Shown: positions 4,366 to 9,318, counted from the first letter of the stretch. The stretch is 13,417 bases of DNA from a virus (IMGVR_UViG_2526164690_000043:1-13417), one strand, 5' to 3'. Notes: generated from the sequence alone by a model not told the origin. Program-made: numbers and translations.

Positions 4366-4665
4366 ATGAAACTTAAATATTCTGGCTTAACTGCCAGTGG
4401 CAACACTCACCCTAAATTTACGCGCGGCGATATTTACCGCGACCAGTACGGCGGCACGGTAATGATTAAGGGCGTGGCGGGACGGTGCGTAACCTACCGC
4501 CGTGAAGGTTACGAATATGATTGCGTGATGCCTGTTTATCAGTTCCGGCGTGATTTTTCTCTGGTACAGACCGCGCCGCATAACGTGCCCACCAGCAACG
4601 CCAGGGCACGGGCAAACATCCAGAAGCTGAAAACCATGATTAACGGATTCAGGGGCAAGAAATGA
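4366..4665 (+). CDS. Hypothetical protein, possibly DUF4222-like
   Basis: GDIYRDQYGGTVMIKGVAGRCVTYRREGYEYDCVMPVYQFRRDFSLV resembles the small beta-rich DUF4222 pattern seen in enterobacterial prophages. This rests on memory only. Confidence 0.45.
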   Translation: MKLKYSGLTASGNTHPKFTRGDIYRDQYGGTVMIKGVAGRCVTYRREGYEYDCVMPVYQFRRDFSLVQTAPHNVPTSNARARANIQKLKTMINGFRGKK

Positions 4666-6059
4666 AAAGCGCACCGAACTTAAAAAAACAGCCTTACGAC
4701 AAGATGACCGAAGTCATTATTTTTGCGGGTAGTGATGCCTGGGCACATGCGAAACAGTGGCAGGAACAGGACGGGCGACTGGCTGGCGATAATGTGCCTC
4801 CCGTTGTGCTGGCTGATGATCAACTGGATGAACTGGCAGACCTGAGAATCATCGACGAGGGGCGCTATTGTGTCCGGCTGTACAAGGCAGGCCACATCAG
4901 GCCATCAAATATTAATGCCATTGCGCACAAGCTGGCAGCGGCAGGTGTACAGGATGCGAATTACTACCCCGATGGGATGCACAGCCAGAAGCGGGAGAAC
5001 TGGCGCGAATATCTGGAACGGGAGCGCGGGGAAAAGCAGGAAGAAAAAGGCCACCAGCGCAAAACAAAGCTACCGATGAGCGTTGGTTCTGCCGGATATG
5101 ACACGCAACTGGATTACGTGGTTAAGGGGATTATTCCGGCGGTATCGCTTTGCAGCATATACGGGGCGAGCGGTTCCTATAAATCGTTCCTTGCGGGTTC
5201 GTGGGCGTGTCACGTTTCCACGGGCCGCCAGTGGGGAGGCCGCAGGGTGGCGCATGGCGCTGTTCTCTATGTGGTTGGTGAAGGCGGTATCGGCGTTCCG
5301 CGTCGTGTAAAAGCCTGGGAGGTTGTGCACGGTGAGCAGGTGAAAAATCTTTACCTTGTAAACCGTCCCATCTTTCCGGCTGCCCCGCTTGATGTTGATG
5401 AAATGGTTATCGCTGCCCGTCAGGTGGAGCGGGAAACGGGTAAACCTGTTCGAATGATTATTCTGGATACGCTGGCGCGCTGCTTTGGCGGCAATGATGA
5501 AAATGACTCCCGTGATATGGGGACGTTTATCCGTGGGTGTGACGAACTGAAACGACGCACAGGGGCCACGGTGCTGGTGGTTCACCATTCCGGCAAGGAT
5601 GAGACGAAAGGCGCGCGCGGTTCCAGTGCATTTCGTGCTTCGCTGGATGCTGAATACCGGATACGCAGGGAGGACGCAGGAAGCGAAGCGCTGGTTATCT
5701 CATGCACCAAAATGAAGGACGCGGAGGAACTCAAAGAAGCCGCATATGACTTACGCGTGGTGGAGCTTTTTACCGACGCTGACGGGGAGTTAATCACGTC
5801 GCTGGTGGTGGTGGATAAGCCGCGCCCTCCCGTTGAACTGGAGCGCATCGAGGAGGCAGGGAACAAGACGGAGAATCACGCCGCGCTATGGCAGTGCATC
5901 AGAACACGAACAGCACACGGGGAGGCGTGCACTATCGCCCTTCTCCGCGACGATATGAAAAAGCTGGGGTATGAGATGAAGCACTTCCGGCGCTGGCTGT
6001 ACAAGCTGGAAAATGATGGCGTAATCGTTATTGACGGTGATGACGTGCGCCCGCTGTAA
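4662..6059 (+). CDS. Replication initiator/helicase, RepA-like RecA-fold ATPase (AAA_25 type) with a C-terminal winged-helix-like tail
   Basis: 465 aa. Walker A is YGASGSYKS and Walker B is VRMIILDTLARC. VLVVHHSGKDETKGARGSSA is typical of RepA/DnaB-like AAA_25 proteins. ATGA-coupled to the upstream ORF, and the iteron array begins at its stop codon. Confidence 0.85.
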   Translation: MKSAPNLKKQPYDKMTEVIIFAGSDAWAHAKQWQEQDGRLAGDNVPPVVLADDQLDELADLRIIDEGRYCVRLYKAGHIRPSNINAIAHKLAAAGVQDANYYPDGMHSQKRENWREYLERERGEKQEEKGHQRKTKLPMSVGSAGYDTQLDYVVKGIIPAVSLCSIYGASGSYKSFLAGSWACHVSTGRQWGGRRVAHGAVLYVVGEGGIGVPRRVKAWEVVHGEQVKNLYLVNRPIFPAAPLDVDEMVIAARQVERETGKPVRMIILDTLARCFGGNDENDSRDMGTFIRGCDELKRRTGATVLVVHHSGKDETKGARGSSAFRASLDAEYRIRREDAGSEALVISCTKMKDAEELKEAAYDLRVVELFTDADGELITSLVVVDKPRPPVELERIEEAGNKTENHAALWQCIRTRTAHGEACTIALLRDDMKKLGYEMKHFRRWLYKLENDGVIVIDGDDVRPL

Positions 6060-6260
6060 AAAGTGGGGAGTAAAAGTGGGGAGAGTGGGGAATTTAACAA
6101 AATTGAAACATAATTACCCACTTTCCCACCTGTATATACCCAAAAAAGTGGGGAGTAAAAAATATATTGAAAAACATCACGTTAGAATCACAAAAAGAAG
6201 AGGTGGGGAGACGGTGGGTAATTTCAAAAAGTGGGGAGCAAAAGTGGGGAGTAGTGGGGA
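6059..6260. repeat. Iteron-type origin of replication (ori)
   Basis: Nine direct copies of RGTGGG(G/T)A start at 6062, 6075, 6084, 6147, 6202, 6213, 6230, 6243 and 6253. Two inverted copies lie at 6115-6122 and 6124-6130. A triple-iteron block (6059-6095) is repeated at 6227-6263. These flank AT-rich segments at 6092-6116 and 6155-6200. Confidence 0.8.
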
Positions 6261-6512
6261 ATGAACAGAAAAACCAGAGATAAGACAGCGCCAAAATATA
6301 AAGCGTTAGACATGACAGAGCTTTCCCTAAAGGTGGCAATCAGAACGATAGACCGACACGTAGGGGAAGGATACGCGAAGGAACATCCCGACCTGATAAG
6401 CGCATTCATGACCACAGCAGCGGCAAACTTTGCCACGCTGACAGAACGGGAGATTGCCGAAGCGGAACAGGTAACAACCATCAACGTTAAAACCGGAGAG
6501 GTGGAATCATGA
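6261..6512 (+). CDS. Hypothetical protein (83 aa; alternative start at 6312)
   Basis: The ATG follows the last iteron directly, and GGGGA could act as the SD. The gene is coupled (ATGA) to the next ORF. No family recognised. Confidence 0.5.
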   Translation: MNRKTRDKTAPKYKALDMTELSLKVAIRTIDRHVGEGYAKEHPDLISAFMTTAAANFATLTEREIAEAEQVTTINVKTGEVES

Positions 6513-6814
6513 GCGAACCAAAATTTGGTGAAAAACTTTACAAGCACAACGGACGGATCACGATTCAGCAAATAAGCGCAGCTACACCAGGCTGGTGGGT
6601 TGAAACAGACGAAGGATCATCACCCGTGGCATCATGGGCGCTTTGTGTGCTTAGTTACCCTGACCGCGATGTGTATCAGGATATTCTGCCTGTGATATCC
6701 ACTGACAAAGGCATGAAACCCGTAGACATCAAAAACATGGGTTTTCAGTGCGTAATGCTCACTGAAAAAATGATGGAAGAGATGAAAAAGAACAACGCCG
6801 GATCGCTTCACTGA
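6509..6814 (+). CDS. Hypothetical protein (101 aa)
   Basis: ATGA overlap with the upstream ORF and a plausible globular composition. No family recognised. Confidence 0.55.
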   Translation: MSEPKFGEKLYKHNGRITIQQISAATPGWWVETDEGSSPVASWALCVLSYPDRDVYQDILPVISTDKGMKPVDIKNMGFQCVMLTEKMMEEMKKNNAGSLH

Positions 6815-6823
6815 GGTGGCAAT

Positions 6824-7234
6824 ATGACAGCACAAATTGCAGCTTACGGGCGCCTGGTGGACGACCCGCTGGTAAAACAGAGCAGCAAGGGCACACCGAT
6901 GACTCTGGCGCGTATGGCGGTATCGTTGCCATGCAGCCAGGCACATGACGGACAGGCGACGTTATGGTTATCGGTTATCGCATTTGGCAAACAGGCCGAT
7001 TTCCTGGCTAAACATCAAAAAGGCGATGTTGCCAGCGTATCCGGCACGATGCAGGTAAGCCAGTGGACCGGACAGAACGGGGAAACACGGCAGGGGTATC
7101 AGGTTATTGCAGACAGCGTAATCAGTGCCCGTGCGGCACGTCCTGGCGGGAACAGACGCAAAACCACAGGCACACAGGGTAATCAGCCACCAGCGGGAGG
7201 CGATGACCCTTACGGTGATGATATTCCGTTCTGA
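6824..7234 (+). CDS. ssb: Single-stranded DNA-binding protein
   Basis: 136 aa. The OB-fold N-terminus (GRLVDDPLVKQSSKGTPMTLARMAV..WLSVIAFGKQADFLAKHQKGDVASVSGTMQVSQW) is followed by a Gly/Pro/Gln-rich linker and the canonical acidic tip DDIPF at the C-terminus. Confidence 0.9.
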   Translation: MTAQIAAYGRLVDDPLVKQSSKGTPMTLARMAVSLPCSQAHDGQATLWLSVIAFGKQADFLAKHQKGDVASVSGTMQVSQWTGQNGETRQGYQVIADSVISARAARPGGNRRKTTGTQGNQPPAGGDDPYGDDIPF

Positions 7235-7246
7235 GGGGTGGGGACG

Positions 7247-7519
7247 ATGGTACATGACCGCATAGCGGAAGAGCTGGAGGCGAAAGGCTTTTACCGGAGA
7301 GCGTCGGCGCGATGGGGTGAAGTCATGCAGCTGGTGGAGACAGACAAGGAACGGCATCACATCACGATGCGACGGCTGGAATGTTGCAGGAAGGCACAGA
7401 GGCCACCGGAGCCACCGGATAATTACGGAGACCTGAAAAAGGCAGTCGATCGCACTTATGCCGAAATGGGGATAGATGGTGCTGGTGATGAAATATGGCG
7501 CAATTACCAGGACAGCTAA
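7247..7519 (+). CDS. PerC-family transcriptional regulator-like protein
   Basis: MVHDRIAEELEAKGFYRRASARWGEVM matches the PerC/Pch N-terminal signature (A..LE..G.[WY]RRA..RW.EVM). About 90 aa, as is typical. The track start is GTG 7238, but ATG 7247 is preferred. Confidence 0.6.
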   Translation: MVHDRIAEELEAKGFYRRASARWGEVMQLVETDKERHHITMRRLECCRKAQRPPEPPDNYGDLKKAVDRTYAEMGIDGAGDEIWRNYQDS

Positions 7520-7525
7520 TCACAC

Positions 7526-7549
7526 AGCCGGAGAAATCCGGCTTTTTTT
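7526..7549 (+). terminator. Rho-independent terminator T1
   Basis: AGCCGGA-GAAA-TCCGGCT followed by a T-run through 7549, starting 7 nt after the perC-like stop. Confidence 0.8.
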
Positions 7550-7644
7550 GCACCAGTTGAAACGGTATGGCGCATTACCGGGTTTTCGTCACGGTCTGGC
7601 ATAGTTACTATCTGAAACAAACAGACACAACAGAGGAAAAAACA

Positions 7645-7986
7645 ATGCCGATGAAATTTGATGAGATATTAAAACAGCGTGATAAATACCATGCTGACAA
7701 CATGGAGACGATGAGCATCAATGATTACCGCGCATTCCTGGAGACGGGCGCACTGATTGAAAAGGATCAGCATGGTTTTGTGAGATGTGCTCTATCCGGT
7801 GAAATGCTGGCGGTAAATCCTGAACAGATAGATGCATTGATAGAATTTCTGAAAGGGATCAGGACTGAGCACGCATACAGCCGGAGCAATCCGGTCTTTT
7901 TGTCATTTTTTGTAAATTATTTGTTCGTGGTTGTTCCACGTTGTTCACTGACAGGATCGGCATATTTTACCCGAACTGAATCATGA
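7645..7986 (+). CDS. Hypothetical protein; 3' end doubtful because the ORF reads through a terminator-like hairpin
   Basis: ATG at 7645 preceded by AGAGGA. MPMKFDEILKQRDKYHADNMETMSINDYRAFLETGALIEKDQHGFVRCALSGEMLAVNPEQIDALIEFLKG looks coding. The tail (..FLSFFVNYLFVVVPRCSL..) crosses hairpin T2 and repeat array B. One extra G in the G3 run at 7855-7857 would end the protein as ..FLKGDQD* just before T2. Confidence 0.45.
   Translation: MPMKFDEILKQRDKYHADNMETMSINDYRAFLETGALIEKDQHGFVRCALSGEMLAVNPEQIDALIEFLKGIRTEHAYSRSNPVFLSFFVNYLFVVVPRCSLTGSAYFTRTES
7879..7901 (+). terminator. Terminator-like hairpin T2, a near-copy of T1
   Basis: CAGCCGGAGCAATCCGGTCTTTTTG compared with T1 CAGCCGGAGAAATCCGGCTTTTTTTG. 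The stem is shorter (GCCGGA/TCCGGT with a G-U pair) and is followed by CTTTTTGTCATTTTTTG. Confidence 0.5.
7917..7950 (-). repeat. Array B: three 10-bp-phased GAACAA(C) boxes, inverted relative to array A
   Basis: On the + strand, TTGTTC sits at 7921-7926, 7931-7936 and 7941-7946. The minus strand reads GTGAACAACGTGGAACAACCACGAACAAATAA, the same unit and register as 1252-1313. Confidence 0.75.
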
Positions 7987-8022
7987 GTATTCTCGCCCGT
8001 GGTGCCAGGACGCTGGGGCCAC

Positions 8023-8070
8023 TTTCCCGCCTGTTAATGTGCTCGCCAATATTCATTACCAGGCGGGAAA
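8023..8070 (+). promoter_or_regulatory. Perfect 11-bp inverted repeat in the leader of the head operon
   Basis: TTTCCCGCCTG (8023-8033) and CAGGCGGGAAA (8060-8070) are separated by 26 nt. No T-tract follows on either strand, so this is an RNA stem-loop or a protein-binding palindrome rather than a terminator. Confidence 0.55.
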
Positions 8071-8123
8071 ACGATCGGTGCGATTGCTGATTTCCTTATG
8101 AAAAACGGTTGAGTGTTTGCCGC

Positions 8124-8160
8124 GTCCTGGAGTTCCTTACTTAACCCCAGGACTTTTTTT
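8124..8160 (+). terminator. Intrinsic terminator-like hairpin abutting the capsid start codon
   Basis: GTCCTGG (8124-8130) pairs with CCAGGAC (8147-8153), and 8132-8134/8143-8145 can extend the stem. T7 (8154-8160) follows, then ATG at 8161. The only SD-like element for the capsid gene (AGGA, 8149-8152) lies in the 3' arm of the stem. Confidence 0.65.
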
Positions 8161-9318
8161 ATGCCGAGAATAATCGAATTACGCCAGCAGAAAACCGCCA
8201 TTAAAAATCAGATGCGCGACATGCTGGAGAACGCGGAAAAAGAAAACCGCAGTCTTAACGATGCTGAGGGCGCAAAATTTGACGAATTACGCGCTAAAGC
8301 TGAATCCCTCGATAAAGACATTTCCCGCCTTGAAGCCATTGCAGACGAAGAGCGCAGCAAGCCAGGTAAAAGCAGTCAGACCACTGACCCCGCAGAACTA
8401 CGCAACTACATTCTGACAGGTGAAACCCGCGCATTAAGTACAGGCGTTCCCGCTGATGGTGGTTATACCGTTATCCCTGAACTGAACACCGAAATCATGC
8501 GAATGCTGGCGGATGAATCCACCATGCGCCGCATCTGTACCGTGAAGAAAATCAGCAGCAACGAGTTTAAGCAGCTTGTTTCCGCTGGCGGTGCGACCGT
8601 TAACCACGGTGAAGAGGGTAAGGCACGCGAACAGACCAGCCCCCCGCAGATTAACGAGGTGAGCATTAAGCTGTATCCGGTCTATGCGTACCCGCGCACC
8701 ACACAGGAAATCGTGGATTTTTCCGATGTGGACATCCTTTCATGGCTGACGGGTGAGATTGGCGACACCTTCACGGAAACCGAAGAAAGCGATCTGGTTG
8801 TGGGCGACGGTGACAAAAAAGCAAAAGGTTTTTTATCCGTACCCCGTGCAGAGAAGAACGACAAAGAGCGTGATTTTGGTACGTTGCAGGTAATTAAACC
8901 TTCCGAATCTCTGGCGTGGACATCTGCGGACCCGCTGATCGACCTGAAATTTGCATTACGTAAAAATAACCGCAAAAACGCGGTCTGGGTGGTTAACTCC
9001 ACGACGGCGGCAAAACTTCAGAAGGTGAAGAACGCGAACGGTGATTATATCTGGCGCGACCGTTTACAGGCGGGTGATCCTGATACGTTGCTGGGCCTTC
9101 CGGTCGAATATCTGGAGTTTATGCCTGATAACGTTATTGCCCTGGGTGACTTCAAACGCGGTTACTACATTGTTGATCACGAAACAGGTGTTCGCACCAG
9201 ACCGGACAACCTCACAGAGCCGGGCTTCATCAAAATTTTCACGCAGAAATATTTAGGCGGTGGCGTGGTGGATTCGAACGCGATCAAGATTCTGGAACTG
9301 CCACAGGACGACGATTAA
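8161..9318 (+). CDS. Major capsid protein, HK97 fold/family, with an N-terminal coiled-coil delta (scaffolding) domain
   Basis: 385 aa from the ATG at 8161 (the track ORF starts at GTG 8113, inside the leader). The N-terminus IELRQQKTAIKNQMRDMLENAEKENRSLNDAEGAKFDELRAKAESLDKDISRLEAIADEER is typical of HK97-family delta domains. The body carries family-like stretches such as GGYTVIPELNTEIMRML and ..NAVWVVNSTTAAKLQKVKNANGDYIWRD..LLGLPVEY. Confidence 0.92.
   Translation: MPRIIELRQQKTAIKNQMRDMLENAEKENRSLNDAEGAKFDELRAKAESLDKDISRLEAIADEERSKPGKSSQTTDPAELRNYILTGETRALSTGVPADGGYTVIPELNTEIMRMLADESTMRRICTVKKISSNEFKQLVSAGGATVNHGEEGKAREQTSPPQINEVSIKLYPVYAYPRTTQEIVDFSDVDILSWLTGEIGDTFTETEESDLVVGDGDKKAKGFLSVPRAEKNDKERDFGTLQVIKPSESLAWTSADPLIDLKFALRKNNRKNAVWVVNSTTAAKLQKVKNANGDYIWRDRLQAGDPDTLLGLPVEYLEFMPDNVIALGDFKRGYYIVDHETGVRTRPDNLTEPGFIKIFTQKYLGGGVVDSNAIKILELPQDDD

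Follow-up and report, generated by a model that had tools for sequence, protein, structure and literature searches.

The DNA stretch IMGVR_UViG_2526164690_000043:1-13417 (13,417 nucleotides, referred to in its entirety as the window) is a capsid-forming phage-inducible chromosomal island (cf-PICI) of the EcCIEDL933 family (bioRxiv 10.1101/2022.09.08.507074), and is 99.65% identical to the roxA-phoQ island of Escherichia coli O103 RM8385. Two short plus-strand genes lie between ssb (6824-7234, plus strand; Pfam SSB, E 6.5e-16), which closes the replication module as its final invariant gene and borders a variable slot on the left, and the leader of the late operon: a perC-family gene at 7247-7519 and a second gene, orf2, at 7645-7868. 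Each ends in nearly the same hairpin, T1 at 7521-7550 and T2 at 7874-7901 (both on the plus strand); behind T2, the late leader (7902-8160) extends to the HK97-type capsid gene (8161-9318), which is followed by other head and packaging genes. This arrangement had been described in a reading of the window made from its sequence alone (the sequence-only reading), and it was confirmed, 24 of 28 positions being identical between T1 and T2 at a distance of 353 nt.

Both hairpins are 7-bp stems with five GC pairs, closed by GNRA tetraloops. The T1 stem-loop (7526-7543, AGCCGGA-GAAA-TCCGGCT) is followed by seven T residues at 7544-7550, and T2 has the same stem at 7879-7897, a GCAA loop and five T residues up to 7901. 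A GC-rich stem, a short loop, an adjoining T-run, a location on the coding strand and a distance of 7 to 10 nt past the stop codons together make up the architecture of an intrinsic terminator, and a terminator scan reported both T1 and T2; the scan overall was not enriched, with 22 terminators found versus 16.0 +/- 4.1 in shuffles. The 17-nt hairpin core is present in two copies in the window versus 0.07 expected, and two copies arose in 1 of 200 shuffles. T1 folds with -12.8 kcal/mol (z -4.2). The window copy of T2, in which an extra T at 7895 bulges the stem relative to RM8385 and all other relatives, folds with -10.6 kcal/mol (z -2.8), and the relatives' copy with -14.4 kcal/mol (z -4.0). 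An Rfam search of the entire window at a permissive threshold gave zero matches, by which measure the hairpins and the late leader do not appear to be a described RNA family. REP/BIME (repetitive extragenic palindromic/bacterial interspersed mosaic) elements and IS200/IS605-type hairpin targets were considered and dropped, there being no matching architecture or enzyme.

When positions 6824-8200 were compared by megablast with 5,426 complete E. coli genomes, matches ended at 7548 (the end of T1) or at 7901 (the end of T2), or omitted the approximately 354 nt between the hairpins, and up to five hairpin-matching places were found per genome. The states of the slot after ssb were counted in the same genomes with 221-nt junction probes at a cover of at least 80%. 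The slot was empty in 21 genomes, where ssb was joined through the hairpin to a late leader designated B. It held perC only in 181 genomes with leader A, in 30 genomes in which a second (CFT) allele preceded leader B, and in 25 genomes with leader C; perC plus orf2 were present in 216 genomes with orf2 joined to leader A and in 360 with orf2 joined to leader B. A junction of the CFT allele, hairpin and orf2 was found in 34 genomes. The same states are seen in individual islands, which read ssb-hairpin-leader B in RM7190, perC-hairpin-leader A in Ec15103, perC (second allele)-hairpin-leader B in CFT073, perC-hairpin-leader C in JNEC-KY174, perC-T1-orf2-T2-leader A in the window, RM8385 and EDL933 (the last 95.8% identical to the window across the slot), perC-T1-orf2-T2-leader B in CB9615, and perC (second allele)-hairpin-orf2-hairpin-leader A in RM9245. 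Leader A introduces an HK97-type head module, leader B a module with a lambda-like major capsid and decoration gene, and leader C a protease-capsid fusion. The turnover of cargo between conserved terminators that the sequence-only reading had anticipated is therefore real: the locus varies among relatives, with zero, one or two units in the slot, and homology breaks exactly at the hairpin.

Thirteen copies of the hairpin were scored pairwise over 120 nt of flank on each side. Five left and five right flank classes were joined in nine combinations, including three different packaging modules; T1 joins left class P1 to right class o, and T2 joins left class O to right class A. Between flanks of different classes the score was no better than noise, and similarity was lost exactly at the hairpin. 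In RM7190, homology to the window stops at the ssb stop codon, and the hairpin stands 8 nt further on. Among 41 IMG/VR contigs with orf2, leader B followed in 24 and leader A in 17, while perC allele 1 preceded orf2 in 29 and allele 2 in 4, and the A/C polymorphism of the loop was reassorted against both flanks. Ec15103, which lacks orf2, carries a single hybrid terminator made of the T1 left flank, the T2 loop and the T2 right flank, which is what an exchange inside the hairpin would give. The same GCCGGAGAAATCCGGC hairpin, with its T-run, also recurs within the lambda-like type B packaging module (L003 7339, L005 6966 and L128 5689), where it separates a gene of the head region, 137 residues in product length, from the terS region; about 15 nt of the right flank of this internal hairpin resemble the start of leader C in JNEC-KY174.

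The explanation that we favour, and consider fairly probable, is that this is a variable slot with two optional gene-plus-terminator units, in which the hairpin acts both as an intrinsic terminator and as a homology patch of approximately 28 nt for the shuffling of modules. The shared patch (CAcACAGCCGGAGmAATCCGGCTTTTTtG) consists of the hairpin and a few flanking bases; it recurs at every module border of this island group and would insulate the units that precede the late leader. Since every unit closes with this patch, an exchange of left and right parts becomes possible when islands share a cell: co-resident or co-infecting islands would recombine at the patch, whereby cassettes would be gained or lost and whole packaging modules exchanged. 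At about 28 nt, the patch approaches the shortest length reported to be efficient for RecA-dependent recombination in E. coli, as well as the short homologies on which phage recombinases of the Red/RecT type act, and may suffice for homologous exchange. The breakpoints would then be the product of recombination. The sequence-only reading had seen in the duplicated terminator a possible cassette-insertion site; the breaks do fall at the hairpin, but that wording is overstated, because recombination at a short shared sequence suffices and nothing points to a dedicated insertion mechanism.

It could instead be argued that the hairpins are independent, convergent terminators and that illegitimate recombination followed by selection made the mosaics, hairpin homology being uninvolved. 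In a scan of one genome per species, the 21-nt hairpin word AGCCGGAGNAATCCGGCTTTT occurred in at least 120 unrelated genomes of many phyla, versus approximately one match expected from uniform base composition, and the matches listed were unrelated metagenome-assembled genomes, with none from Enterobacteriaceae among them. A GC-rich stem with a GNRA loop is, accordingly, a frequent solution for a terminator, and because the word is so widespread, the hairpin alone is neither element-specific nor the signature of a mobile cassette system. Moreover, at this border the divergent cf-PICIs FDAARGOS_1249 and SB0258h1 carry terminator hairpins that are unrelated, behind which the conserved leader block is again found; since the position is kept and the hairpin is not, it is termination that appears to be conserved at the border, and the identical hairpin sequence is limited to one island group. 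Convergence nevertheless fits poorly with the extent of the identity, which goes beyond the stem to 5-8 nt of CA-rich sequence upstream and to a T-run followed by G downstream, at five kinds of left border, nor would it predict the same patch in nine left/right combinations, a loop variant reassorted against both flanks, or a T1/T2 hybrid in the island that lacks orf2. We therefore consider independent origin of the hairpins unlikely.

The abundance of the word does weigh against a role of the hairpin in exchange, as do several further points. Some copies of the hairpin could be convergent; the reassortment of the loop could reflect recurrent A/C mutation between equally stable GNRA loops; and breakpoints at terminators could partly reflect selection for exchanges that leave genes and terminators intact. 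Where two islands share their flanks, no event at the hairpin is required for one of them to have gained or lost orf2. In 5 of the 41 IMG/VR loci (L143, L145, L156, L159 and L166), a point change weakens the stem of T1, approximately 120 nt upstream of orf2, converting TCCGGC of the 3' arm to TACGGC or TCCGGA; no stem-weakening change of T2 was seen in the 41 loci with the pattern used.

With up to two gene-plus-hairpin units in tandem, or none, the slot has a formal likeness, and only that, to the variable-number arrays of integrons, and the hairpin might be taken for the attC-like site of a dedicated cassette system with a site-specific or single-strand recombinase. This is extremely improbable. 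An 18-nt perfect stem-loop with a T-run is unlike an imperfect attC of 57-141 nt with R and L boxes, and the island lacks attC architecture, an IntI-type integrase and an attI/Pc platform; its sole recombinase is a P4-type tyrosine integrase for chromosomal integration. The same hairpin also borders whole multi-gene modules, and neither a circular cassette nor a conserved core site is evident.

A parallel to the exchange that we favour is offered by the boundary sequences of lambdoid phages, which, as the concept is cited in PMC3029335, are likewise short sequences common to unrelated flanks, located exactly at mosaic junctions and able to support homologous exchange. They differ in that the sequence here resembles an intrinsic terminator, resides in satellites and marks five kinds of border, one of them inside a packaging module. 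The locus is a tidy example of known mosaic evolution, of the kind described for morons and boundary sequences, and not a new kind of system; current views of PICIs are not overturned by it. What it adds is a sequence-level account of how satellites with quite different packaging strategies share one replication module and accessory genes through exchange at one short terminator. A stronger version would hold that the patch is a selected 'universal linker', kept identical at module borders for recombination of satellites during helper-driven replication, probably by the helper's Red/RecT-type recombinases, and that the orf2 family is a previously undescribed factor specific to satellites, distinct in fold, that takes part in the switch to packaging. 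We regard this version as quite doubtful; if it were true, satellites would swap packaging strategy (own capsid, lambda-like head remodelling or protease-capsid fusion) and cargo in a single step.

The first gene of the slot begins at ATG 7247, not at GTG 7238, and encodes 90 residues that match PF06069 and phrog_994. The PF06069 profile covers residues 1-89 of 90 (E 2.6e-43; 146.6 bits versus a cut-off of 22.6), indicating a full-length member of the family. The N-terminal signature LE..G.YRRA..RW..VM, from which the sequence-only reading had recognized a PerC-like regulator, withstood alignment: L10, E11, G14, Y16, R17, R18, A19, R22, W23, V26 and M27 are invariant, the PchABC-type protein WP_001303878 included. 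The window protein is 88-96% identical to the island PerC of EDL933, CB9615 and JNEC-KY174, approximately 80% identical to the CFT073 allele, which is shorter, and 41% identical to the PchABC-type protein, which has 104 residues and is encoded after Rz1 in lambdoid prophages. The gene shows dN/dS values of 0.10-0.54, and its GC content of 54.6% is not deviant (ssb, 56.4%). PerC genes on PICIs of Gram-negative bacteria were already known (PMC6092414, PMC11773190), and the PerC proteins of O157:H7 (PchE, ECs1588), CFT073 and EcCIMP1 share with the window protein both PF06069 and the position behind hyp and ssb. By family and position, the window gene, our allele P1, is assigned to the PICI-borne PchE type, which has already been described.

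This assignment corrects the earlier proposal that the satellite may rewire host virulence through the PerC-like protein, in so far as ler is concerned. The LEE-activating PchABC type is the more distant one. On the enterocyte effacement locus (LEE), the PerC homologues of EcCIEDL933 and EcCICFT073 had no effect on LEE1 fusions, as far as the published tests are reported (Porter 2005, as cited in PMC11773190; PMC6265319), and the EcCIMP1 homologue is a LEE1 repressor (PMC11773190). PchE, in contrast to a LEE activator, represses csgD and curli and enhances flagella (PMC6265319, PMC7369912). By analogy with PchE, a rewiring of the host by the window PerC is plausible, although not via ler. A search of NCBIfam with the window PerC gave nothing beyond a sub-threshold match to NF033650, a family of AraC negative regulators (ANR) (E 0.0013; 18.5 bits, cut-off 32). 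As a lead only, this match, which echoes a suggestion made for the EcCIMP1 homologue (PMC11773190), hints that PerC may act via protein partners. A sequence search of the PDB with PerC returned no meaningful match.

The sequence-only reading had also implied that perC is bounded by terminators on both sides and may serve the island's own late transcription, neither of which held. The gene starts 12 nt past ssb, with no terminator on the upstream side, and in O157:H7 pchE shares its transcript with the upstream genes ECs1586 and ECs1587, the start of which is a G located 10 nt upstream of ECs1586 and 675-680 nt upstream of pchE (PMC7369912). In EDL933 and CB9615, hyp starts 669 nt upstream of perC, and 669 plus 10 nt fits the published map; in the window the G at -10 of the hyp ATG is retained, yet one additional small open reading frame (ORF; 6509-6814) intervenes. 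As for late transcription, islands without perC carry the same late leaders (leader A in FDAARGOS_1249, L127; leader B in RM7190, L128), and perC is for this reason dispensable cargo and not a late activator. We propose that hyp-ssb-perC is transcribed, without induction of the island, from a promoter located in the origin region, as published for pchE and by extension in the window island, and that PerC would act on host regulons such as curli and flagella rather than on the late genes of the island.

The second gene, orf2, encodes 74 residues in relatives (WP_001132080), where it ends in ...KGIRD* at window positions 7866-7868, and belongs to phrog_1957 (E 7e-42), a PICI-associated family. 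In the window, a G missing at about 7861 relative to RM8385 and all other relatives removes the TGA, so that the ORF runs through T2 to 7986. Because dN/dS between alleles is 0.11-0.24, a sign of purifying selection, orf2 is judged to be a real gene. Its product had zero matches in Pfam, NCBIfam and PADLOC; PADLOC likewise found no defence-system match for perC and four neighbouring ORFs, and profile-profile comparison showed the orf2 family and PerC to be unrelated. An AlphaFold2 model (pLDDT 85.7) matched no fold, and comparison of the predicted structure detected no DNA- or RNA-binding fold; a model made without an alignment (pLDDT 53) was not used. Neither the orf2 protein nor the DNA of the whole slot had a match in deposited phage genomes.

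A word-indexed protein search found close relatives of orf2, all in E. coli; an exhaustive search returned approximately 20 representative homologues of 66-106 residues with 31-44% identity, for which the consensus is Y..L...A.F..DHHGFLR..LSGE.LA.N.EQ.D.LIE.L. A homologue stands directly before the capsid leader in SB0258h1, where it overlaps perC, and in FDAARGOS_1249, where it overlaps a ProQ/FinO-family gene in the place of perC; in a distant cf-PICI (L131) it lies between primase and capsid, and in three further contigs directly after a RepA-type helicase. The ProQ/FinO-family gene that substitutes for perC lies at L127 3463-3993; since terminator hairpins with a 3' tail are what FinO-domain proteins bind, its presence beside a border so rich in terminators is curious. 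One match, P0021 (1383 residues, seven partial matches), contained no informative Pfam domain. A distant homologue, P0022 (L136 6001-6231, L137 1867-2097), adjoins a divergent gene pair encoding the type VI secretion protein Hcp and a Tlde1-domain protein, its neighbours being neither replication nor capsid genes. Our best guess, weakly supported, is that orf2 acts in the transition to packaging or in the handling of the helper. Such a role would account for the conserved position; it is only weakly supported because orf2 is optional for both leader types. This conserved small protein without structural assignment, at the border of replication and packaging, is also carried by EcCIEDL933, the prototype cf-PICI, in which it is open to experiment.

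Gene-plus-terminator units of this kind had been likened to phage morons, and the likeness applies to orf2 more than to perC. Like morons such as HK97 gene 15 (PMC3594210), orf2 is present or absent between near-identical genomes (in leader A and leader B backgrounds, perC being likewise variable), has a deviant GC content (43.6% versus 51-56%; perC 54.6%, ssb 56.4%) and has a terminator of its own. A promoter of its own is less clear: no sigma-70 consensus promoter for orf2 exceeded the scan threshold, and the sole candidate in the 5' region of the unit (7551-7644, plus strand) is a weak extended -10 element, TGgCATAGT, at 7597-7605. The orf2 homologue of divergent islands overlaps its upstream gene and would be co-transcribed with it, which also departs from the moron pattern. 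The perC gene departs further, being neither deviant in GC nor an independent transcription unit, with no terminator upstream and, as in O157 (PMC7369912), a transcript shared with ssb. In the arrangement that we favour, T1 would terminate the hyp-ssb-perC transcript and shield what lies downstream, orf2 would be transcribed weakly, whether from the candidate promoter of its own or through read-through, T2 would terminate it, and the late operon would begin behind T2 with three TTGTTC repeats, a folded leader and a third hairpin, T3. Overall, the sequence-only reading was largely right about what lies at the locus, its interpretation being partly supported; the PerC part was already known.

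The layout of three terminator-like hairpins ahead of the capsid gene also admits another explanation, namely that PerC, orf2 or both form the late switch of the island, T1, T2 and T3 being conditional barriers that, once the helper is induced, are overridden by an antiterminator (of AlpA type, or orf2). An AlpA-family protein is encoded by the island, and there is a precedent in the AlpA of Pseudomonas aeruginosa, which antiterminates processively after loading at a promoter element that lies upstream of a leader terminator (PMC7969949, PMC9371919); members of the orf2 family stay just before the capsid leader or after a replication gene in divergent islands, and phased TTGTKY repeats occur just upstream of orf2 and just after T2. 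The two systems are alike in having an AlpA-family protein and, here, a late leader in which a repeat array precedes the leader terminator T3. They differ in the binding element, which is GGGACG-N5-GGTA in P. aeruginosa and phased TTGTTC in the window. Antitermination by the PICI AlpA may be suggested by analogy only, and the comparison bears on the adjacent leader more than on T1 and T2. The distribution of the genes speaks against a switch made of PerC or orf2: orf2 is missing ahead of leader A in 181 genomes, as is perC in FDAARGOS_1249, leader B stands with neither gene in 21 genomes, and the prototype EcCICFT073 has no orf2. In addition, pchE is on without induction and declines upon SOS induction (PMC6265319, PMC7369912), and no DNA- or RNA-binding fold was detectable in orf2. 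We consider a late switch of this kind somewhat unlikely, and retain the variable slot as the preferred explanation.

The remainder of the window agrees with its classification as a cf-PICI of EcCIEDL933 type. It opens at the start codon of a P4-type integrase gene, followed by an AlpA-family gene (1595-1783; PF05930, E 3e-18), small early genes, a RepA-type helicase gene (4662-6059; AAA_25) and an iteron region (6058-6270). The annotation of the RM8385 island, together with the Pfam matches of the window, gives int, alpA, a replication module, and the island's own capsid, prohead protease, portal, head closure and connector, HNH, TerS and TerL genes, in an element of approximately 15 kb with its own att site and with neither tail nor lysis genes. 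The iterons AAAAAGTGGGGAG are spaced by 85 and 83 nt, with additional GTGGGGA copies, and the iteron region is a PICI-type replication origin; the published start of the pchE operon, the G at -10 of the hyp ATG, is located inside the last iteron set. The ORF at 6509-6814, between hyp and ssb, encodes 101 residues (phrog_27268, function unassigned); RM8385 and RM9245 share it with the window, EDL933, CB9615 and CFT073 lack it, and it is another presence/absence unit of the ssb operon, without a terminator of its own. Compared with RM8385, the window has 12 single-nucleotide indels, two of them being the changes in orf2 and T2 described above, against 35 substitutions, a ratio which indicates that this copy is either decaying or carries sequencing errors of the long-read type. 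Several of the indels (9364, 9397, 9940, 9957, 9967, 10956 and 11067) disrupt the protease and portal frames, and the region appears as short ORFs in the window.

The late leader (7902-8160) has a strong fold of -72.7 kcal/mol (z -4.2). It starts, directly after T2, with three plus-strand TTGTTC repeats in 10-bp phase (7921-7946), which are kept in divergent cf-PICIs behind different terminators, and it ends in T3 (8124-8160, plus strand), a hairpin of terminator-like form with U7, which adjoins the capsid ATG (8161) and is conserved in SB0258h1. A 17-nt inverted repeat lies at 8023-8039 and 8054-8070, and CCAGGACGC (approximately 8006-8014) could pair with GCGTCCTGG, part of the 5' arm of T3. 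From its sequence, the layout resembles an attenuator or an antitermination target. The leader B of CFT073-type islands also has a hairpin and T-run just before its first gene.

Arrays of the TTGTKY hexamer with a 10-bp period occur at four places in the window, at 1265-1310 (five copies, minus strand), 1526-1541 (two, minus), 7615-7630 (two, minus; in the 5' region of orf2) and 7921-7946 (three, plus), whereas 300 shuffles averaged 0.22 arrays, without a single one that reached three copies. Further arrays are found in relatives, at 1087-1102 and 16440-16465 in RM8385 (L001) and at 8523-8548 in L005. The arrays stand beside int, upstream of both alpA and orf2, where the late leader starts and, in RM8385, close to either end of the island. 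By analogy, the arrays resemble binding arrays of the Cox/Vis/Xis type, and the island's AlpA, or Int, is a likely candidate for the protein that binds them.

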